A stretch of DNA of 49,852 nucleotides from Candidatus Micrarchaeota archaeon (GCA_013425425.1 JACCLJ010000053.1:1-49852); one strand, 5' to 3'. Positions 1 to 28,672 are shown, counted from the stretch's first letter. A program made the numbers and translations. Notes: generated by a model from the sequence alone, not told the origin.

Positions 1-490
1 CGAAAAGCTGATGAAGGAATTCAACCGCAAGGGGCTTGAAACGGTGTGCCTCCGCTATTTCAATGCATATGGGCCCCGCCAGGACCCGAATTCCCAATAC
101 AGCGGAGTGATAACGCGGTTCATCGGAAAAATGCTGAACGGCGAAAGCCCGCTCATATTCGGTGACGGGAACCAGACGAGGGACTTCGTTTTCGTTAACG
201 ACGTCGTAGAGGCAAATATTCTTGCCGCGGAGAAAAAAGGCGCTGCGGGCGAAGCATTCAACATCGCGACAGGCGTTCCGCTCACGATAAACCAGCTGGA
301 AGGAATACTCTCAGAGCTTACGAGCCATGACATCGACCCTGTTTATGCAGAGAAACGCGATGGCGACATCTACGATTCCTATGCGGACGTCTCGAAAGCG
401 AAGCGCCTGCTCGGCTTCGAGGCGGCCATGCCAATCGCAGAGGGGCTCGGGAAGACGGTCGAGTGGCAGCGAGGCCTTCAGGGCAAATAA
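1..490 (+). CDS. NAD-dependent sugar epimerase/dehydratase (UDP-glucose 4-epimerase-like), C-terminal fragment; 5' end outside window
   Basis: Frame is open to the window edge. Translation (YFNAYGPRQDP...GDGNQTRDFVFVNDVV...) matches the C-terminal half of extended-SDR GalE/WbpP-type epimerases. Stop at 488-490. Confidence 0.85.
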   Translation, partial: EKLMKEFNRKGLETVCLRYFNAYGPRQDPNSQYSGVITRFIGKMLNGESPLIFGDGNQTRDFVFVNDVVEANILAAEKKGAAGEAFNIATGVPLTINQLEGILSELTSHDIDPVYAEKRDGDIYDSYADVSKAKRLLGFEAAMPIAEGLGKTVEWQRGLQGK

Positions 491-518
491 TTTAAACCTC
501 ATTTTGCTTATCTGGAAT

Positions 519-14388: not shown

Positions 14389-15189
14389 TTAATCGTATCT
14401 TCCTTTCAGCACGTCGAGTATTACGTTTGCAGTAGTAACCGGCCTGTCCAGCGTCACAGTATGGTTTTTCGCACCCCTCATCTGGAAGACATTCGCGAGG
14501 TTCTCTTCCTTCAGCCTCTCTGCATCCAGGGTGGTGCAGAAGCAGTACATTTTTTCCCCGTGCAGAGCATAAAGCGACTTGTAATCTATCCGCCTCATCA
14601 GGCCGAGCCAGTCCTCCATCGCCTTGGACATGAATCCCGGTCCAGCCTGCACGGTCAGCTTTACGATGGCCTCGCGCGCCTCCATCACCGCATCCAAATC
14701 CGGATAGCCGGTTTTTCTTAACTCCCTCTTCGCGTTCCTTACGCTGAAGCCGCTCTGCGAGTCCAGGAATTTCCGGGCAACCAGCTCCATCGCAAGGCTT
14801 CGGAACAATGTGCATTCAACCTGCTTCAATATCTCTATCATGGCGGTGTGCGGTCCCATGTGCTCATCGCACTGCCCGGTATGCAATGAGCAGTTGAAGA
14901 ATATCATCCTGTTTATGTGTTTGGCCAGCTTCGGGTATTCCTGCAGCGCCATCAGCATTATCTCGCCGGGGTTTCCGTTTAGCACGACGCTGGCGTTATC
15001 CATCCCCTGCAGCTCATGTGCCAGTGTTTTAACGTACGGCATCAGCAGGTTCCCACGGTATCTCCTGAAGTCAACTTCAGGCTCGCCCATTATGCGTGCC
15101 CTGCAGCCCAGTTCTTCAAGCAGCTTCTTCACGATTCCGAAAAACAGTTTCGCGGTATTAGGAGCAATCGGCGAGGAAACGTAAAGCAC
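14389..15189 (-). CDS. Orphan protein with degenerate alpha/beta-hydrolase-like pattern
   Basis: GTG start. VVLNGNPGEIMLMAL occupies the nucleophile-elbow position with no Ser. The C-terminal YALHGEKMY...GAKNHTVTLDRP resembles the Asp/His end of the fold. No family recognised. Confidence 0.55.
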   Translation of the reverse strand: MLYVSSPIAPNTAKLFFGIVKKLLEELGCRARIMGEPEVDFRRYRGNLLMPYVKTLAHELQGMDNASVVLNGNPGEIMLMALQEYPKLAKHINRMIFFNCSLHTGQCDEHMGPHTAMIEILKQVECTLFRSLAMELVARKFLDSQSGFSVRNAKRELRKTGYPDLDAVMEAREAIVKLTVQAGPGFMSKAMEDWLGLMRRIDYKSLYALHGEKMYCFCTTLDAERLKEENLANVFQMRGAKNHTVTLDRPVTTANVILDVLKGRYD

Positions 15190-15313: not shown

Positions 15314-15349
15314 AATCTGTGTTAAACATTAGATGAAAATGTTTAAAAA
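15314..15349 (+). promoter_or_regulatory. Promoter/operator copy 1: ...AAACATTAGATGAAAATGTTTAAAAA (TATA = TTTAAAAA)
   Basis: 20-nt core at 15330-15349 is identical to 17869-17888. Contains the inverted repeat AAACATT-N7-AATGTTT. TATA ends 29 nt before ATG 15379. Confidence 0.65.
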
Positions 15350-15378
15350 ACGTCTGATACAAAGGTTAAACCGATATT

Positions 15379-17844
15379 ATGGGTGGGGAAGGAAATCTGC
15401 AGGAGCTAAAAGCAGCTGAAAGGCCGAGCGTGAGGGAGCGTGTCAAAAACGCTTTCAGGAAAGCATTGCCCATCGTTGTGCCTATCGCACTGGTTGGCGG
15501 GATAGCAATAGGCGCAAGCGTGCGCGGCTGCATGGCGAAAAAGCATGAGAAGATGGAAATCGAGGATTGTATGGCAACCGAACACTGCTACCCGTACACC
15601 CTGAATAATCAGAAGCAGAGTGGAATGCGCGAATTGAACGAAATACACCAGTTGCTCATAAAAAACATCGGCGACAACAACGAAGAGCTCGCCCTTGCAT
15701 TCAAGCACCTCGGCTATATTACGACGAGCTATTTTTTTGACGTTGGGAAAATGCCATTGGTGAAACAGCTTGTTGAAAGTTCCGGCAATAATGCAGTATA
15801 CTCGCTTGAGATACTCTCAAGGCTAACGACAACTCCGGGCTATAATTATAACGCCGGCGGTTACGAAATAACTGCGGATGACGTAACCCGGATTGCGGCG
15901 GCAGTCAACCAGCTTGCGCAAAAATCCGGCGATGCAAAAAAAGACGTTTTCCCGAAGGTTTTGGATTCTGCGAGCACAATGTACTGCTCGAAAGTATGCT
16001 GGTGGTCCATGACTCCGAAAATGTTTGGCGTTGTCGAGGCCATATCGAAGAATTCGGCTTCCAAGGACGACATACTTTACAAAGCCGAAATTATTGCGCG
16101 ATTGAATAGGAGCGGCGAAATGCTCGCAGACCCGGGCGGTTTTGCAAAAAAAATATGCGAAACCGCAGATGCGGTTTCGGCAAAAGCCGGGCCGGGCAAG
16201 GAAGAAGCATTGCGGATTTACCGGACGCTTATGCTAAACCGGCCTTATAGGAACTTGAACGAGAAACCGGAAGATTTCCAGAAGCGGCTGGATGCCTATG
16301 CAGCGAGCGCACAGCCGCAAGGCCTGCTGGATATGATCGGCGTTTTGGCGGAAAGGTCTGCGGACAGCGAAAAATTCACATATGCAATGAAGGTTACGGA
16401 AAAGATTCTGGTTGATAACAAATACAAATCGAAAAAATTCGATGCCGAATTCGCAAACAGGCTTTGCGGCAGCATGGACATGATTGCCGGTGAATCGCAG
16501 GGAAATTGGAAATACGGGCTCGATTTTTTCCTTGCCCTGGTTTCAAATCTGCACTTCGATTTCAACAGCATGAACCCGGAGTTCGCCGGAAAGATAGGCA
16601 AAGCAGCAAATCTCGCTGCCCAGCGCGCAGGAGGGCGGGCCTCGGAGGCGATGGCAAAAATAAATTATTTTGCAGGAGCATATTACACTACGACTGAAGG
16701 GGTGACCCTCTCCACCGAGCAGTACGATTGCGTCGATACGGTGCAAGTTCTTGCGGAAAGGTCGAAAGATGCGGACCAGTTTCTCTGGCATCTCGAGCTC
16801 ATAATCAAATCCGCCTCGCCTCCGGTTAAAGGCAGGGATGAAAAATATGCGATGCTTGCAGGGAAGCTGTGCGACCTCGAGGGCATGATCCTCGCGAGGA
16901 CGAATAACAATCCGGCGGCAATACGCGCGCTTGTCGAGCTGGTAAATAACGTATTCGGCTTCAAACTGGGCGTGGTAAAGCTCGTGGAGATCGGCATAGG
17001 GGACGCGCAGGGGAATGAAGTGATAGATGCAATAAAATCCATGAAAAAAGTCATAGGCTACTCGTCCCGGGAAATTTCCTACAAGGATTATGAAGAGGGC
17101 GCTGCACTCGTAAATGCAATTTTCAGGGCCGAGAAGCCAGACCTTAGGAAGGTGCTGAATTTTTCTTACGGCGTTTCGGTCATCGGAGCCGAGAAAACGC
17201 GCGAAATGTACAAGATATTCGGCATCGAGTACTTTTTCAGGTACCCGGCCGAGCTTTTGGAGGAAGCAAGCAGGAATGCAGACCCCTCAAACCCGTCCCA
17301 GAAGCCCCTTCTGCTTTCAATGGCCGCCAAAACAGACTGGAATAACGCTTTCTCCGGCATCGGCTGGGAGCTGAAAGGGCTTACGAAATATTACAGGGTT
17401 CTGATTGCGGAAACAAACGCCGACCTGACTTTTTACAGCAGGATAAACGAAGTTTCCGCGCTATACAAGCAGCCGATATCCGTGCTTGTCATAAACGGCC
17501 ATGGAACGCCGTACGGCGTATGGCTTGGCAATACGGGCAGCAAAACCGGTGCATTGAGCCATGGCGATGGGCTGGAGGTGGCAAGGCTGCAGGACAGTTT
17601 TGTCAAGAACCCGTTAATCATCTTCAACTCCTGCTCGACGGGAAAGAACCATTCAGCCATCGGTGGGGCATTCTCAAAGCTCCTCGGCGCAACCGTTTTC
17701 GCTCCCACAGACATAAGCTACGGTGCCGATTACATCCTCGACGCTGAGGGCCGGATAATCAGGGCATGCTACAACGTTTCGACAACGGAATACATAAATG
17801 GCATGCCCCATTCCATCCCAGCCGACACCTGCACGAAGAAATAG
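15379..17844 (+). CDS. Membrane-anchored 821-aa protein: N-terminal TM, long helical-repeat region, C-terminal CHAT/caspase-like (clan CD) domain
   Basis: TM at about aa 30-48. Repeated VLAERS.D...F helical modules. C-terminus has SVLVINGHG (His708) ... PLIIFNSCSTG (Cys752) ... LGATVFAPTD, the His-Gly / strand-Cys arrangement of CHAT and caspase-fold peptidases. Confidence 0.7.
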   Translation: MGGEGNLQELKAAERPSVRERVKNAFRKALPIVVPIALVGGIAIGASVRGCMAKKHEKMEIEDCMATEHCYPYTLNNQKQSGMRELNEIHQLLIKNIGDNNEELALAFKHLGYITTSYFFDVGKMPLVKQLVESSGNNAVYSLEILSRLTTTPGYNYNAGGYEITADDVTRIAAAVNQLAQKSGDAKKDVFPKVLDSASTMYCSKVCWWSMTPKMFGVVEAISKNSASKDDILYKAEIIARLNRSGEMLADPGGFAKKICETADAVSAKAGPGKEEALRIYRTLMLNRPYRNLNEKPEDFQKRLDAYAASAQPQGLLDMIGVLAERSADSEKFTYAMKVTEKILVDNKYKSKKFDAEFANRLCGSMDMIAGESQGNWKYGLDFFLALVSNLHFDFNSMNPEFAGKIGKAANLAAQRAGGRASEAMAKINYFAGAYYTTTEGVTLSTEQYDCVDTVQVLAERSKDADQFLWHLELIIKSASPPVKGRDEKYAMLAGKLCDLEGMILARTNNNPAAIRALVELVNNVFGFKLGVVKLVEIGIGDAQGNEVIDAIKSMKKVIGYSSREISYKDYEEGAALVNAIFRAEKPDLRKVLNFSYGVSVIGAEKTREMYKIFGIEYFFRYPAELLEEASRNADPSNPSQKPLLLSMAAKTDWNNAFSGIGWELKGLTKYYRVLIAETNADLTFYSRINEVSALYKQPISVLVINGHGTPYGVWLGNTGSKTGALSHGDGLEVARLQDSFVKNPLIIFNSCSTGKNHSAIGGAFSKLLGATVFAPTDISYGADYILDAEGRIIRACYNVSTTEYINGMPHSIPADTCTKK

Positions 17845-17850
17845 CCTCCT

Positions 17851-17888
17851 TATCTATGTGGCAAACGCTAGATGAAAATGTTTAAAAA
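17851..17888 (+). promoter_or_regulatory. Promoter/operator copy 2: ...AAACGCTAGATGAAAATGTTTAAAAA
   Basis: Identical 20-nt core TAGATGAAAATGTTTAAAAA. TATA ends 24 nt before ATG 17913, which implies a leaderless mRNA. Confidence 0.65.
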
Positions 17889-17912
17889 CCCGACTTGACA
17901 TAAGATAGTGTA

Positions 17913-19469
17913 ATGAGCGGAAAACACGTTGAAAAGCAGGAGGCAGTCATAGCACGCCCAATCCGTGTCATAGGCGACTGGTCAAAAGCGCATCTGTCCT
18001 CAATCGAGCTTCCAGACTACAAGATGAAGCTCATCGAAGCGGTTACCCGCTCGAGAAGGAAAGACGAAGCGATCGGAATTCTCAAGGGCATGCATCCCGG
18101 AGCGAGGGAGCTGAAGCTGAGGACCGAAATAGCAAAATTATATGGCGAGGACAACTGGGAGCAGGATGTTGAAAGATATACGAAAGCAATGGGCGAACTG
18201 CGCTGGGAATACGGATTGAGGAGCCCGGACTCCGACGAAAAGCTCGAAGCGGTGCGGAATGAAGACAATTTAAGCGAAGCGCAGAAAATTGCACTTGCAA
18301 ACAGGTTCAAAATGGGAATAAGCAATCTTGAGATTGCAGCTTCAATCCAGCTCAAGCTCAGGAAAACGGACGGGAAAAAACTTTCGCTTAAAATGTTTGA
18401 TGAAAATGAGAGGAAAATACTCAATGTTCTTCTGCCAGGCAAATCGCCTCTGGAAGAGAAAGCTTCTAGTGAGGAACTGGAGAGGCTGAAAAAAGAACTC
18501 ATCGAGAAATTTTATGTGAAAATCGAAAATAGGAGCGGCATATACCTGGAAAGAAAAGTCATCTACCCTGCTGCGCTTGCGCTCTATAACAGCGGAGAAT
18601 GCGGAATCGAAACATTGCGCCAGGCGGTGAGGGAAAAGAAAGAGGCGGAAATCCTGCTTGAATTCATGGGGAGGGAACCGCAGCACAAGGTTGAATTCGT
18701 TGAAAGAGGCCTTACGCGCAGGAAAAATGACGTGAACGAAGATGCGCTAAACCGCGTGAACGAGGACGCGCTGCTGTCGGCGGATATTCATGTAAACGGA
18801 AAAATAAAACGGCTGGATGCTGTTTTCGACGGGGTCGGAAGCTCTAACAAGGCATCTTCGGCAAGCAGCATGGCGGTAGAAGTCTTCAAGCTTGGCCTGC
18901 TCCTGAAGCCGCCGAAATCGACGGCTGACCTGGAACTGCTGATGGGCATGGCCGACCTCGCGATTTTCACATGCAGGGCCGCGAACGTCGGGCTGGACGC
19001 ATCAGCAACAACCGCCGCAGTATTCCTATTGGACGGAAAGAATGCAGCCGCAAGCCATGCGGGAGACAGCGGGTGGAAGGTTTTCAGGAAAAATAAGGCC
19101 ATATACTCCAGCATAGACCATTCGGTGGCTGCAGAGCTTGAAAAAGACGGACATCCGAGCGAAGGCCCGCGGTCCAGCGTGATAACCTCGGCGCTAGGGA
19201 CGAGCTTCAACCACCTCGATTCGTGCATCCTCGATTTGAAAAAAGGGGACGTATACGTGCTCTACACTGATGGGGTAGGCGATACCGTAAAAAACGAGGA
19301 AATGGGGAAGATATTTTCCGAAGAGGACGATGTTGCTCTTTCGGAAACGAGGATTTTCACACTGGCGCGTTCGAGGAACGAAAATGATAAAAAGTATCCT
19401 TCGCTCACCGGCGGCATTGTTTACGGAAAATGCGACGACGATACTGTTATTGCCGGCAGGGTAGAATAA
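17913..19469 (+). CDS. PP2C/PPM-family Ser/Thr phosphatase with a roughly 265-aa helical N-terminal extension
   Basis: PPM motifs in order: NEDA (present twice), DAVFDGVGS, HAGDSG, LYTDGVGD, CDDDTV. Confidence 0.8.
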   Translation: MSGKHVEKQEAVIARPIRVIGDWSKAHLSSIELPDYKMKLIEAVTRSRRKDEAIGILKGMHPGARELKLRTEIAKLYGEDNWEQDVERYTKAMGELRWEYGLRSPDSDEKLEAVRNEDNLSEAQKIALANRFKMGISNLEIAASIQLKLRKTDGKKLSLKMFDENERKILNVLLPGKSPLEEKASSEELERLKKELIEKFYVKIENRSGIYLERKVIYPAALALYNSGECGIETLRQAVREKKEAEILLEFMGREPQHKVEFVERGLTRRKNDVNEDALNRVNEDALLSADIHVNGKIKRLDAVFDGVGSSNKASSASSMAVEVFKLGLLLKPPKSTADLELLMGMADLAIFTCRAANVGLDASATTAAVFLLDGKNAAASHAGDSGWKVFRKNKAIYSSIDHSVAAELEKDGHPSEGPRSSVITSALGTSFNHLDSCILDLKKGDVYVLYTDGVGDTVKNEEMGKIFSEEDDVALSETRIFTLARSRNENDKKYPSLTGGIVYGKCDDDTVIAGRVE

Positions 19470-19489: not shown

Positions 19490-20161
19490 CTACGAACTGT
19501 TAGACTGTGCGCTGGGCGTCTGCGTATCCAGGCCCTCTGTGCCGAACGGCTCTTCCGTTTCTATCTGGAACAAGCCGGCAAGCTGCTCCTCAGTTATGTT
19601 CGTTCCGCCAGCCCCGCCGCCGGTTTCGTTATCCCCGGAAGTCCCGTTTTCAGGAATAATCAGCCCCGTGCATCTCCAGTTTATTTCCGCAGTTCTGGTC
19701 AGCTCGTCAACAACGCATGCTGGAGAGCATCCCTGCCGCACTATGTCGGTTTCGAACCACCATGTGTGCGTATTCTCGTTGTACATGTACTCGTCCGTGA
19801 TGCCTCCCTCCCCCATGCAAGCACTGCCAAGCGCTATCGCGCGCGCCTCGTCAAGCGTGATGCTGCCTTCGACACATGGCTCCTCCCATGTCCTGAGGCA
19901 TTTCTGCTTTACCTCGCACCAGCTATACCCTGCAGACCCTATGCAGCCATGCTCGTCCCTGTCCCCGCCAAGCGGCGTGGCTTCGGTGCAGTTCTCCTCC
20001 CACGAGCGGATGCATTTCTGCTTCGCTTCGCACCAGGAGTATCCCGCAGACGGGATGCATCCATGCCCATCGCGGTCGCTTCCCGGCGGCCCCTGCTGCG
20101 CGCATCCGAAGAAAAGGAACAAACCGCCAACCAACAACAATAGTATTATCCTTGTTTTCAT
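19490..20161 (-). CDS. Secreted/lipobox cysteine-rich protein with two tandem roughly 38-aa Cys4 repeats
   Basis: Start ATG 20161 (MKTRIILLLLVGGLFLFFGC). Repeats are G.DRD.HGCI.SAGYSWCE.KQKC.R.WEE.C. C-terminal Cys-containing domain, then a Thr/Gly/Asn-rich tail. Confidence 0.75.
   Translation of the reverse strand: MKTRIILLLLVGGLFLFFGCAQQGPPGSDRDGHGCIPSAGYSWCEAKQKCIRSWEENCTEATPLGGDRDEHGCIGSAGYSWCEVKQKCLRTWEEPCVEGSITLDEARAIALGSACMGEGGITDEYMYNENTHTWWFETDIVRQGCSPACVVDELTRTAEINWRCTGLIIPENGTSGDNETGGGAGGTNITEEQLAGLFQIETEEPFGTEGLDTQTPSAQSNSS
19853..20083 (-). repeat. In-frame tandem duplication (2 x about 115 nt) encoding the Cys4 module
   Basis: GSDRDGHGCIPSAGYSWCEAKQKCIRSWEENC versus GGDRDEHGCIGSAGYSWCEVKQKCLRTWEEPC. 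Confidence 0.8.
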
Positions 20162-21075
20162 TCGAACATCCCCTCCAGTATCAATGCCCTTATGGAATTG
20201 AAATCGTTCGCAATCACCAGCCCGTCGGTCCAGCACCCGAGGTTCTGCCTGCTGTACTCCGCGTTGTTTTCCACGCCAGCGGAATATTCGCATTCCTCGA
20301 GCAGGTCGTCTATGTCCTCTTCAAGCTCATCGCCTCTTTCGAGGATTTCCTCCCTGTTGCCGTTGTTGCCCTCTTCGATTATCGGCCTTGCATAATCTAT
20401 GACCGCCTTCATCTGCTCAGCCCTGAAGAGCAGCATGAGCCTGGAATGCCTGAGGTGCAGTTTTTCGATCTCCTTTGTATCATGCGTATCATACACGGCA
20501 TCCGCATCGTCTACAAGCTCTTCGCCATATTCGATGTTCTGTTCCATCCCGGACGTATCCGCGCCAAGGTCCTGCAGGTCTTCTATCTCCTCATTGCCCT
20601 TTTCAAGTTCATTATTCACATACTCCTTTGCGGCGACCTTCTCCTTGTCAAGCGCTGCGGCTACGCATTCGTCCCGCATACTCTTGAGCGGCTCGTCATT
20701 TTCGTCGACGCAAGCGAAGAAGCCGAGAGTCTTGTTCCTGAACGCGTCGCCCACTATTGCGCCTATCAGCGCCAGGGAATCGAGCCCGAGCTTAAAAGAA
20801 GCGGCACCGAATTCAGGCTCGTCCGCATCGTCCGCGGCCTCCCTGAGGTCTGCCAGGTCTCCATCAAGCGTATCCACGTAATCTGAAGAATCGAACACAG
20901 TTACGTTCTCCTCAATCCCGCACTCCTCCCGCATGGAGAGGAATTCCTTCCCGAAATCCACGTTGCATGCCGCAAGGTCGTACCGTGCATCGAGCATGGC
21001 AGGCGTTGCCTGATTATACCATGCGGAAGCCAGGCCGGACAAGGCGACAAGAACAAAGGCCAAAACCCATTTCAT
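20158..21075 (-). CDS. Secreted, highly acidic protein (orphan)
   Basis: Start ATG 21075 (MKWVLAFVLVALSGLASA signal peptide). Asp/Glu-rich with paired cysteines. Its TGA overlaps the ATG of the downstream Cys-rich gene (ATGA), which implies an operon. Confidence 0.7.
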   Translation of the reverse strand: MKWVLAFVLVALSGLASAWYNQATPAMLDARYDLAACNVDFGKEFLSMREECGIEENVTVFDSSDYVDTLDGDLADLREAADDADEPEFGAASFKLGLDSLALIGAIVGDAFRNKTLGFFACVDENDEPLKSMRDECVAAALDKEKVAAKEYVNNELEKGNEEIEDLQDLGADTSGMEQNIEYGEELVDDADAVYDTHDTKEIEKLHLRHSRLMLLFRAEQMKAVIDYARPIIEEGNNGNREEILERGDELEEDIDDLLEECEYSAGVENNAEYSRQNLGCWTDGLVIANDFNSIRALILEGMFE

Positions 21076-26146: not shown

Positions 26147-28672
26147 CTACTCCAAGGGGCAGACATATAAGTACGATGCGGCAGAGGTCGAACCTACATA
26201 AGTTACCGCCGTTCGACCAATTGCCAACGCACCTAGGTACATTGTTCCTTCCCTAAAAATATTTGTTATCGTACCGGCACTAAGGTCAGCTATGAATAAA
26301 CCCGTTCTTTCCCCATCACCGCCATAGAAAACTACTTTATTTTCCCATATATCGGACCGTTCAGCAAATGAAAAACCATCTGCCAGCAAAGTGGTTTCTC
26401 CACTTGGTATATCGTATAAAAATACGTCGCTGTCATGAACTGCACGCTCGACATCAAAAACTATTTTATCCCCATAAATTACGTTGACACGACCGCCGAT
26501 TTCACCGTAGCTAGGTATGTGTTGCAGGTTTCCAGAATCAAAATCATAAATATATAACTCAGGCCTCCATTCAACTGCTTCCCTGTCACGGATTACGGCC
26601 GTTATTTTCGAATCATAAACTCCAGTAGGTGGTATGTCAAACACTTCAAAACTCTCAGGTAAGATGTATTCCTGAACATCACTCGTAACGAGGTCGTACA
26701 TCTTAAGAGTCCACGGCTCGCCAGGAGTTTGTTTCATATAACCCATTCTGTTTCCCTGTATGCCCGGCCAGCTGCCTTCATCAACCATCTCTATATTCTC
26801 TTCACCCAATCGATAAACACAAACACCGTCGCAAGACGTGCCACTGCAGTTCATTACTATCGTATTCTCCCAAATATGTGGCCATAGAGCCGTAGGACTG
26901 CATTCTTCCGTAGCAGGTACGTCCCTGATTTCCTTAGTCTGCACGTCGCCATACTTTAAGATGCCGTCTTGAAAGAAAACCACAGTATTCTCATAAATAT
27001 CTGGTGCGCTAATCGAAGTGCCCGATGCGAGTTCGTAGCAGACCTCCTCATTTGCCAGTTCTAAAGCTCCAGCAACATCCAATACGCCCGCCCCTACATC
27101 CCGGCACCCATCTCCTTTCCTTGCCGACCTCATCAAGATATCTTTCACTTTTACTGGCCGAAATTGTGGATATTCTCCAAAAACTAGTGCAGCAGCACCT
27201 GCAACCATGGGTGCCGAAAGGGAAGTGCCGTTACCTATAACAAGACTCCCATCTGTTCTTTCCCAGTCAGGCATGGCTATGCGATATCCGGGTGCCGAAA
27301 GTTCTACGACTGTTCCTTCTACTGTAAAGTAATGGCCTAGTGTAGAAAGATCGCTGCAAGACGCGCATTCGCATCTGTGTAAATATCGTCTTGGTTCGCA
27401 TAGCGGACCGAGCGCAACCCAATCCATCGTGCACGTCGGATCATCCCAGTCATCTGTCGCTCCAACTAAAATGGCGTTATCCACATAATAATACTCGGAA
27501 GCGCTATGATCTTCGGGAAGCCATTTATCGTCATGCTTAAAACCGTCATTTCCTGCCGCAAAAACAACCAATACATCGTTTTTATATGCCAAACGCATCG
27601 CAGGAAGAAACTCATTTCTAAAATAAGCGCGATCCTCCAGCGTTGCTTGTCCGGTGCATGCATCATTATGGCATGCAGACAAAGATATATTCATGACCTT
27701 CGCGCCCATCCTAATAGCTAATTCTGCAGCTGCTTGAACATCTCCCATTATTACTCCACGTGTGCTGTTAACGACATCTACCGTTATGAGTGGGTTCTTC
27801 CAAGCAATTCCAAAACCACCAACACCATCGTCACCTCTTGCTCCCGTCATTGCTCCAACTACCGTCCCATGTTCTCCCTCTGAAGATTTGATGATACAGC
27901 CTTCAATTGGCTCAATATCACTGCCATAATAAATAGTTCCATCTTCGAAAATGCATCTTAATCCTACTCTTATATCTTTACCAGAAAAATGGCCAGAACC
28001 TACTCTGATACCCGAATCGAGGATAGCGATGGGAACTTCCGACGAGCCAGTCGTTATATCCCACGCTTCTCTCAAATCTATTTTATCAGCCCAATAAAAA
28101 CCGTTTATTGCATCTCCAACGATATTGGGATTTGGATCCAAAAGCGGAGTAAGTACGGTATTCGGCGAAGCGATCCAAACACCTTCCTTTTCTTTCAACT
28201 CATCCAAGATATTTGATAAATCGTCTCCATTTCTAAGTTCGTATTGTACCATCTTCATATCGGGAATCTGACCAACATGTTTTGCTCCTCTTGCAGCTAA
28301 CCACTCCTTTACTTCTTGTATATGAGGGAGGGTTGCTTCTTCCGTGAAGGTTACAAGTACTTGATTCTTTGCAACCTGTGTTGGTGACAAACCCTCTTGC
28401 TGAAAAGACATAAATTTATCTGTAGTTTTGATGTATGTTGCATTAGGAGGCATCTCTGGTATTTCTACATTGTCATTTTTTGCACATCCCGCGATTCCAA
28501 GGAATGCAGAAAGCCCAGCAGTTAAAAGAAATTTACTTAATTCTCGAAAACGTTTAAGCGTCTTTTTGGTCTCTCCCCTTTCAAAAGCAGATTTCCTTCT
28601 AACAGCATCAAATTCATTTTTCTCTTCTATTCTTTCATTATTCCCCATCGCTTTGGTATGTCGTAAAAACAT
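26147..28672 (-). CDS. Subtilisin-family (S8) serine protease, lipobox/TM-anchored, with I9-like propeptide and C-terminal beta-propeller-type repeats
   Basis: Catalytic D (AILDSGI), H (GEHGTVVGA), N (AAGNDG), S (GTSLSAPMVAGAAAL). N-terminal LSAFLGIAGC. C-terminal repeats of the type (I/W)(Y/E)(G/N).(K/T)(I/V)V(F/M)....D(I/V)(F/Y)(L/I).D. Confidence 0.88.
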   Translation of the reverse strand: MFLRHTKAMGNNERIEEKNEFDAVRRKSAFERGETKKTLKRFRELSKFLLTAGLSAFLGIAGCAKNDNVEIPEMPPNATYIKTTDKFMSFQQEGLSPTQVAKNQVLVTFTEEATLPHIQEVKEWLAARGAKHVGQIPDMKMVQYELRNGDDLSNILDELKEKEGVWIASPNTVLTPLLDPNPNIVGDAINGFYWADKIDLREAWDITTGSSEVPIAILDSGIRVGSGHFSGKDIRVGLRCIFEDGTIYYGSDIEPIEGCIIKSSEGEHGTVVGAMTGARGDDGVGGFGIAWKNPLITVDVVNSTRGVIMGDVQAAAELAIRMGAKVMNISLSACHNDACTGQATLEDRAYFRNEFLPAMRLAYKNDVLVVFAAGNDGFKHDDKWLPEDHSASEYYYVDNAILVGATDDWDDPTCTMDWVALGPLCEPRRYLHRCECASCSDLSTLGHYFTVEGTVVELSAPGYRIAMPDWERTDGSLVIGNGTSLSAPMVAGAAALVFGEYPQFRPVKVKDILMRSARKGDGCRDVGAGVLDVAGALELANEEVCYELASGTSISAPDIYENTVVFFQDGILKYGDVQTKEIRDVPATEECSPTALWPHIWENTIVMNCSGTSCDGVCVYRLGEENIEMVDEGSWPGIQGNRMGYMKQTPGEPWTLKMYDLVTSDVQEYILPESFEVFDIPPTGVYDSKITAVIRDREAVEWRPELYIYDFDSGNLQHIPSYGEIGGRVNVIYGDKIVFDVERAVHDSDVFLYDIPSGETTLLADGFSFAERSDIWENKVVFYGGDGERTGLFIADLSAGTITNIFREGTMYLGALAIGRTAVTYVGSTSAASYLYVCPLE

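Follow-up and report, generated by a model that had tools for sequence, protein, structure and literature searches.

A predicted clan CD peptidase-like protein from a large Micrarchaeota family and its probably independent PP2C neighbour

Do two adjacent genes that share an identical promoter box form a functional pair, and what does each of them encode? The question is raised by a contig of Candidatus Micrarchaeota archaeon (GCA_013425425.1, JACCLJ010000053.1), of which the whole stretch analysed, 49,852 nucleotides, is referred to here as the window. Two same-strand (plus) open reading frames (ORFs) fill the region at positions 15,314 to 19,469, and a first-pass annotation, made from the sequence alone, had read them as an orphan module of a membrane-anchored CHAT/caspase-like protein and a PP2C phosphatase. 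Our analysis suggests that the first gene ends in a domain with a clan CD (caspase–hemoglobinase) fold and an invariant His/Cys dyad, that it belongs to a large family almost confined to Micrarchaeota, and that the phosphatase gene is probably an independent neighbour. Both ORFs are present as annotated:

15379–17844, plus strand: gene 1, 821 aa, NCBI H0O02_02150 (hypothetical protein); predicted signal anchor, alpha-solenoid repeats and C-terminal clan CD peptidase-like domain.
17913–19469, plus strand: gene 2, 518 aa; lineage-specific N-terminal domain and PPM/PP2C phosphatase domain.

When compared by sequence, gene 1 showed no significant match in Pfam, NCBIfam or the PDB, and PDB sequence searches with profiles of 3, 29 and 107 sequences likewise gave no significant match to the catalytic domain. 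These profile searches returned sub-threshold matches to DUF4347 and CHAT, together with helical-repeat matches for the N-terminal parts. The C-terminal domain was therefore judged from a structural model. AlphaFold2 (AF2) on three orthologues gave a mean predicted local distance difference test (pLDDT) score of 36, which was unusable, and the 107-sequence alignment from an exhaustive search was used instead; with it, residues 575–821 were modelled with a pLDDT of 95.8 and a predicted template modelling (pTM) score of 0.93.

aa 575–821, nt 17101–17841, plus strand: C-terminal family domain; helical subdomain with the YF.RY motif, then an alpha/beta core.

In the numbering of the modelled domain, strand 126–132 leads into G-H134-G and strand 167–176 into S-C178. 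The top match of this model in a Foldseek search of the PDB was 9qpe_G, the C-terminal domain of Tce1 (E 3.2e-6, probability 1.0; TM-score 0.64 normalised to the target, 183 aligned columns), followed by caspase-7, -3, -8, -9 and -11, legumain, PIGK/GPI8 and a C11 protease, with probabilities of 0.96–1.0; asparaginyl ligases were also returned. Against BFVD, the matches were caspases, metacaspases and clostripains.

The conserved residues agree with this fold. His708 (codon 17500–17502), in the NGHG motif, lies after strand 3, and Cys752 (codon 17632–17634), in the NSCSTG motif 44 residues further on, lies after strand 4, which is the arrangement expected of clan CD, and the His-Gly...Cys dyad is kept across homologues. 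In 142 aligned domains, His708, Cys752 and Glu678 are conserved in 100% of the sequences, Asp653 and Arg621 in 99%, Asp730, Gly709 and Ala775 in 97%, and Pro776 in 96%; the two dyad residues are invariant in the 107-sequence alignment as well. In an hhalign comparison of the family with caspase-3, H708 falls on H121 and C752 on C163, but the probability, 0.6%, is not significant and the alignment serves as a register check only. The His-Gly and strand-Cys layout from which the first-pass annotation had proposed clan CD is thus borne out, both by the caspase-fold matches of the model and by the invariance of the two residues among the 142 relatives. Gene 1 is accordingly predicted to carry a clan CD fold at its C-terminus, with His708/Cys752 as the putative catalytic dyad.

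Two further features of the domain stand outside the dyad. The sequence G-I-x-Y-F-x-R-Y is near-invariant in the helical subdomain (aa 615–627, ~17221–17259), with Arg621 at 99%, Phe619 at 97% and Tyr622 at 96%, and the tetrapeptide C-T-K-K ends gene 1 (17830–17841) and both of its close orthologues.

Could the same motifs belong to an alpha/beta-hydrolase, with HG as the oxyanion hole, S-C-S-T-G as the nucleophile elbow and Ser753 as the nucleophile? The strand followed by HG and the S-x-S-x-G around Ser753 do resemble that pattern locally, and one weak sequence match to a dienelactone hydrolase was found (E 0.86), in a different region. However, the high-probability fold matches are all clan CD peptidases, Ser753 is conserved in 85% of the 142 domain sequences compared with 100% for Cys752, and a conserved Asp/His pair in hydrolase order is lacking after the motif. 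The Foldseek search rules out this reading of HG...SxSxG, to which we give almost no weight.

A different alternative keeps the fold and changes the chemistry. The domain might work as a ligase or transamidase, in the manner of GPI8 or the butelase-type legumains, or as a strict autoprocessing domain, such as the C80 domains in MARTX and TcdA/B toxins, which would free the solenoid from its anchor. PIGK/GPI8 and asparaginyl ligases are indeed among the Foldseek matches, a published comparison sets Tce1/Tce2 nearest the TcdB autoprocessing domain (PMC13323088), and the family domain always forms the extreme C-terminus of the multidomain proteins that carry it. The sequence level, however, does not separate these chemistries, no conserved candidate cleavage site was identified, and the toxicity of Tce2 in yeast requires its catalytic Cys (PMC13323088), which speaks for a trans activity of this relative. 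We consider a non-endopeptidase unlikely. If the domain is instead a protease, as we prefer, its likeliest activity would be to cleave a bound protein substrate or itself, and the conserved acidic D653 after strand 1 may indicate a preference for basic P1 residues.

Which clan CD family is closest? CHAT (PF12770) scores 11.6 bits on gene 1 (E 0.19), short of its gathering threshold of 24 bits, and matches only two of 29 family members at E ≤ 1. DUF4347 (PF14252) scores 12.5 bits on gene 1 and 17.2 bits on its orthologue in the related contig L001, with a gathering threshold of 24.6 bits, and matches 20 of the 29 members at E ≤ 1 (best E 6.5e-6). Two members, P0017 (27.3 bits) and P0075 (25.8 bits), exceed the PF14252 gathering score, and a third, P0160, has a precomputed PF14252 match. 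The structural match points the same way: 9qpe_G is deposited as 'DUF4347 domain-containing protein', and the family hidden Markov model (HMM) places the GHG histidine on chain residue 77. If the chain begins at residue 110, as the resolved C-terminal domain does (PMC13323088), this position would be Tce1 His186. His186 and Cys240 form the putative dyad of Tce1, a type VI secretion system (T6SS) effector and putative cysteine protease, and Tce1 and Tce2 are structurally nearest to the TcdB autoprocessing domain (PMC13323088). The PF14252 scores, which run from below to above threshold, and the Tce1 match together indicate that the gene 1 family is a divergent DUF4347/Tce1-like sister or sub-branch, and by Pfam threshold it is not CHAT. 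Of the earlier label 'caspase/CHAT', the caspase-like fold thus stands and CHAT does not.

The size of the family depended strongly on how it was searched. A word-indexed search with gene 1 found just two relatives, both orthologues (45–47% identity), and a profile search behind a word prefilter found 10 proteins. An exhaustive HMMER search with a three-sequence profile found 928 cluster representatives (clusters at 50% identity) at E ≤ 1e-3, and 291 at ≤ 1e-10; gene 1 is therefore not an orphan, as had been thought. All 928 representatives match through their last ~235 residues, and the family domain always lies at the extreme C-terminus of proteins of 200–1300 aa whose N-terminal regions are variable. 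All 13 matches with a named source are from Micrarchaeota, Micrarchaeia or Bilamarchaeaceae. A pattern scan of 185,579 GTDB species genomes, built on a six-sequence alignment and sampling only members with GIEYFARY or LIIGGHG-type words, found 11 loci in Micrarchaeota and one in Woesearchaeota. Some genomes carry many copies: contig JAFGCC010000014.1 (which contains L009, L019, L022 and L024) has seven head-to-tail paralogues at 100.2–114.6 kb, an array of ~14 kb. A further paralogue lies at 166.7 kb, and contig 24 of the same genome carries another. The window genome also has a second paralogue, H0O02_04475. A search of the literature on Micrarchaeota and cysteine proteases or caspases found nothing relevant to such proteins. 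These data describe a large, fast-diverging paralogous family, almost confined to Micrarchaeota and apparently undescribed.

The N-terminal part of gene 1 contains a single transmembrane (TM) helix, as annotated, and a series of repeats.

aa 29–47, nt 15463–15519, plus strand: hydrophobic helix ALPIVVPIALVGGIAIGAS, the single TM helix of gene 1.
aa ~190–585, nt 15946–17133, plus strand: at least three alpha-helical repeats of ~130 aa, alpha-solenoid/HEAT-like, from profile–profile self-comparison.

The helix is invariant in the gene 1 orthologues and is kept in P0014, a protein of 31% identity. Six Lys/Arg residues lie within the 15 residues before it, and by the positive-inside rule gene 1 is probably a signal-anchored protein with its N-terminus inside the cell; its large domain would then most likely be extracytoplasmic. 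Several other family members have N-termini that resemble lipoprotein signals. For the repeats, hhalign matched aa 190–315 to 315–448 (probability 92.6%, E 5e-7) and aa 315–448 to 448–585 (86.7%, E 4e-6), so that the recurrence of the VLAERS motif, noted in the first-pass annotation, reflects true internal repeats. They appear alpha-solenoid-like, to judge by weak matches with alphaRep, importin-beta and designed helical repeat proteins. Among 151 family proteins, 21 contain this module, in as many as six copies. In the arrangement that we propose, gene 1 would be a single-pass signal-anchored protein whose alpha-solenoid repeats serve as a binding or recognition platform before a DUF4347/Tce1-type peptidase domain.

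Gene 2 is more readily assigned, and its two parts are as follows.

aa 1–265, nt 17913–18707, plus strand: N-terminal domain, lineage-specific, kept in all nine aligned full-length Micrarchaeota homologues.
aa ~266–518, plus strand: PPM/PP2C catalytic domain, bacterial-type, with Pfam, NCBIfam and PDB matches.

The catalytic domain matches Pfam PP2C_2 above threshold (31.2 bits, cut-off 24, aa 281–463), the NCBIfam Stp1 PP2C model (E 1e-21) and the solved bacterial-type PPM phosphatases tPphA, Stp1 and PstP (E 6e-17 to 1e-8). In motifs I, II, VIII and XI, the residues that bind metal (N283-E-D285, D306-G-x-G, D453-G and D508-D-x-T) do not vary among the nine full-length homologues, in keeping with the PPM motifs first read from the sequence. 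By these sequence matches, gene 2 is predicted to encode a bacterial-type PPM/PP2C phosphatase. Its N-terminal domain has no match in Pfam or the PDB and by hhalign is not homologous with the repeats of gene 1 (probability 0.1%), and the protein has no TM or signal segment.

At 18733–18780, an in-frame 24-nt tandem duplication (GTGAACGAAGATGCGCTAAACCGC / GTGAACGAGGACGCGCTG...) doubles the NEDAL of PPM motif I; this 8-aa duplication is unique to the window PP2C among the homologues aligned. In the related locus L007 (7776–9296), and in L008, the PP2C is split into ORFs of 52 aa and 431 aa, the cause being a frameshift (pseudogene) or a mistake in the assembly.

Do the two genes belong together? 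The observations that first suggested a module are correct in themselves: the genes are adjacent, on the same strand, and preceded by an identical 20-nt promoter core, and in one other contig they have stayed adjacent at just 45–59% protein identity. Furthermore, proteins that join helical repeats to a caspase-like protease, of which TPR-CHAT/Csx29 is an example, act as effectors in some bacterial conflict systems. A single signalling or abortive-infection/defence module, in which one protein controls the other and both are co-regulated through identical promoters, would explain these points. We compared the neighbourhoods of related loci and contigs (L001–L027, ~14 distinct contexts).

The adjacency of gene 1 and PP2C was found elsewhere in only one contig, L001. 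In L003–L008, full-length or split PP2C homologues occupy the same position, with the same synteny and promoter, and gene 1 is not there. Downstream of PP2C there is always a small lipoprotein-like gene, a gene of ~305–328 aa, proteasome beta and aCPSF1; upstream there is a phosphoribosyltransferase in L003–L006 and, directly, AdoHcyase in L007/L008. Conversely, L002 has a gene 1 orthologue with the lipoprotein-like gene directly after it and no PP2C, and P0014 (L026 4585–8424, also in L027; Bilamarchaeaceae) is a colinear, 31%-identical gene 1 orthologue without a PP2C neighbour, which lies divergently beside AdoHcyase, with DNA polymerase B after it. The other family loci, L009–L025, contain no PP2C homologue. 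As P0014 also lies beside AdoHcyase, the synteny between the gene 1 subfamily and AdoHcyase spans a long evolutionary distance; the steady neighbour of gene 1 is AdoHcyase, not PP2C.

The shared promoter box has an equally local explanation.

15318–15349, plus strand: gene 1 copy of the PP2C promoter/operator element, TGTGTTAAACATTAGATGAAAATGTTTAAAAA; BRE-like (transcription factor B recognition element) GAAAAT and TATA box TTTAAAAA ~30 nt before the ATG.
17857–17888, plus strand: ancestral PP2C promoter/operator element, TGTGGCAAACGCTAGATGAAAATGTTTAAAAA; TATA box ~24 nt before the gene 2 ATG.
L001 8300–8332, L003 7940–7971, L005 7931–7962 and L007 7720–7751: PP2C upstream element in relatives, conserved over ~32 nt.

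The 20-nt box TAGATGAAAATGTTTAAAAA occurs in exactly two copies (15330–15349 and 17869–17888), as had been annotated, with no other match in the window at up to three mismatches and 0 expected in shuffles. It is the core of a longer element of ~32 nt, TGTGTnAAAnnCTAkATGAAAATGTTTAwAAA, which is kept upstream of PP2C in every related contig (L001, L003–L008) even though the PP2C proteins there are only 46–61% identical to that of the window. The likeness between the gene 1 copy in the window and the PP2C upstream regions of five other contigs reaches upstream to TGTGTT. The element consists of a BRE-like stretch, a TATA box and ~18 further conserved bases, with a TATA spacing that fits a leaderless or near-leaderless transcript; conservation over ~32 nt, far beyond what BRE and TATA box need, suggests that it is probably also an operator for a regulator. 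Upstream of the gene 1 orthologues in L001, L002 and L026 the element is absent and the sequences are unrelated. Both window copies carry a derived G (TAGATG, compared with TATATG elsewhere), a sign that the element was recently duplicated or converted inside the window genome. The box is thus the ancestral PP2C promoter, copied before gene 1 in the window genome only. Co-expression of the two genes in this organism is plausible, but it would be a local acquisition, not the signature of a conserved system. A scan with bacterial sigma-70 and terminator models was uninformative for an archaeal host.

Finally, neither the surroundings nor the predicted locations of the two proteins favour a module. 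PADLOC gave no credible defence-system match in the window, the genes flanking the pair include AdoHcyase, proteasome beta, aCPSF1, tRNA synthetases and the like, and housekeeping genes make up the rest of the window. As for location, an extracytoplasmic position is probable for gene 1, whereas PP2C lacks a TM or signal segment. A PADLOC match to Cas5a (E 6e-4; aa 18–97 of the N-terminal region, including the TM helix) was judged spurious. The data do not support a conserved two-gene module for defence or signalling: among the loci compared, the genes adjoin each other in none but the window and L001, they occur apart in L002, L003–L008 and L026/L027, and the promoter copy before gene 1, once taken as a feature of the module, is missing from the gene 1 orthologues. 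We regard the module as improbable, and the pairing does not merit listing as a new defence system.

In summary, we think it probable that gene 1 encodes a signal-anchored solenoid clan CD protease of a Micrarchaeota family and that the PP2C is an independent neighbour. Gene 1 would then represent one AdoHcyase-linked orthologue group within a paralogous family, gene 2 stays at the same genomic position, behind a conserved promoter/operator, within its clade, and the two would have become neighbours by chance in the Micrarchaeota lineage of the window, the promoter element having been copied before gene 1 in a recent, local event.

Several points weigh against this interpretation. The TM-scores to caspases are modest (0.33–0.42), the dyad geometry and the roles of D653, E678 and D730 were read from secondary-structure register only, and gene 1 itself stays under the Pfam thresholds for both DUF4347 (12.5 bits) and CHAT (11.6 bits). 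Catalysis is inferred for the whole family, and even Tce1 and Tce2 are just putative proteases (PMC13323088). An uncharged N-terminal hydrophobic segment occurs in just ~29% of family members, and the proposed membrane orientation of gene 1 follows from the positive-inside rule. As for the neighbourhood, the sample of ~14 contexts is small, the pair has been kept in L001 despite just 45–59% protein identity, and the presence of the same promoter element on both genes of the window genome may reflect a lineage-specific functional link.

Other features of the locus were observed alongside. The gap between AdoHcyase and gene 1 is ~1 kb in the window and ~120–160 bp in L001 and L026; it is occupied in the window by a 266-aa ORF (14389–15189, minus strand) with no match in Pfam, NCBIfam or PADLOC, and the longer gap suggests that this ORF is either a lineage-specific insertion or spurious. 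Downstream of PP2C, a lipoprotein-like protein (19490–20293, minus strand) contains two copies of the Cys-rich motif G.DRD.HGCI.SAGYSWCE.KQKC.R.WEE and an acidic C-terminal tail that is also kept in L002. The Pfam-negative genes of 111–204 aa at the equivalent position in L003–L007 correspond to it by position only. Further along, between 26000 and 31000, the GC content drops from ~0.52 to 0.41–0.47; this segment, which includes an 841-aa subtilase (26147–28672, minus strand), may be foreign or fast-evolving.

What could such a family be for? Micrarchaeota and other DPANN archaea rely on host archaea, and to our knowledge almost nothing is known of the proteins behind this reliance. Near-confinement to one phylum is the profile expected of host-interaction factors, and the family, which combines a variable recognition scaffold with a conserved caspase-fold protease, takes up ~1% of the tiny genome in some members; the closest solved relative of that protease is a bacterial secretion-system effector. 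From at least 928 clusters, up to nine or more paralogues per ~1-Mb genome and export signals in ~30% of members, we tentatively raise the possibility, well short of a favoured view, that Micrarchaeota carry a lineage-specific, greatly diversified arsenal, arranged partly in tandem, of solenoid and Tce1-like protease effectors directed, during episymbiosis, at the host archaeon's surface or cytoplasm. Choice of the target might then fall to the variable solenoid and the cut to the conserved protease, a division of labour that we put forward with the same reserve. If true, the arsenal would be an archaeal counterpart of the bacterial secreted protease effectors, with gene 1 as a membrane-anchored, AdoHcyase-linked member. 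The analysis also adds to DUF4347, whose first structure appeared only in 2026, a deep branch in archaea whose catalytic signature is clear.

To place the two proteins among known systems, we compared each with its closest counterparts. Gene 2 resembles tPphA, Stp1 and PstP in its catalytic domain and has all of their metal-binding Asp residues, but differs from them in its 265-aa N-terminal domain, which has no known relative, and, in the window copy, in the 8-aa duplication at motif I. The architecture of gene 1, long alpha-helical repeats followed by a C-terminal clan CD domain, is analogous to that of separase (C50) and of TPR-CHAT/Csx29 (Craspase). The likeness is one of architecture only: gene 1 has no C50 match and a CHAT E of 0.19, appears membrane-anchored, carries family-specific repeats of ~130 aa, and has no CRISPR or cell-cycle context at its locus. 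The C80 domains of TcdA/TcdB and MARTX share with gene 1 the clan CD fold and a similar His–Cys spacing. However, they are absent among the 50 best Foldseek matches, and they are activated by inositol hexakisphosphate (InsP6) and cleave after Leu, whereas the conserved putative pocket residues of the gene 1 family are acidic.

The nearest counterparts are Tce1 (PA0256) and Tce2 (PA2372) of Pseudomonas aeruginosa, of which Tce1 is the best structural match to the gene 1 domain (9qpe_G). Like the family, they have a strand-(G/T)HG...LG histidine motif and a His...Cys dyad, with a His–Cys spacing of 54 aa in Tce1 and 50 in Tce2, compared with 44 in gene 1 and 45 in TcdB. In contrast to the archaeal family, Tce1 and Tce2 are small, Hcp-loaded T6SS toxins; delivery as a T6SS cargo is not indicated for gene 1, which has an archaeal host, housekeeping neighbours and no Hcp or T6SS family in the Pfam scans of the window and loci. 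The family differs from Tce1 in an additional N-terminal helical subdomain, whose near-invariant YF.RY motif has no Tce1 counterpart, and in the fusion of the peptidase-like domain to alpha-solenoid repeats and, in gene 1, also to a predicted membrane anchor.

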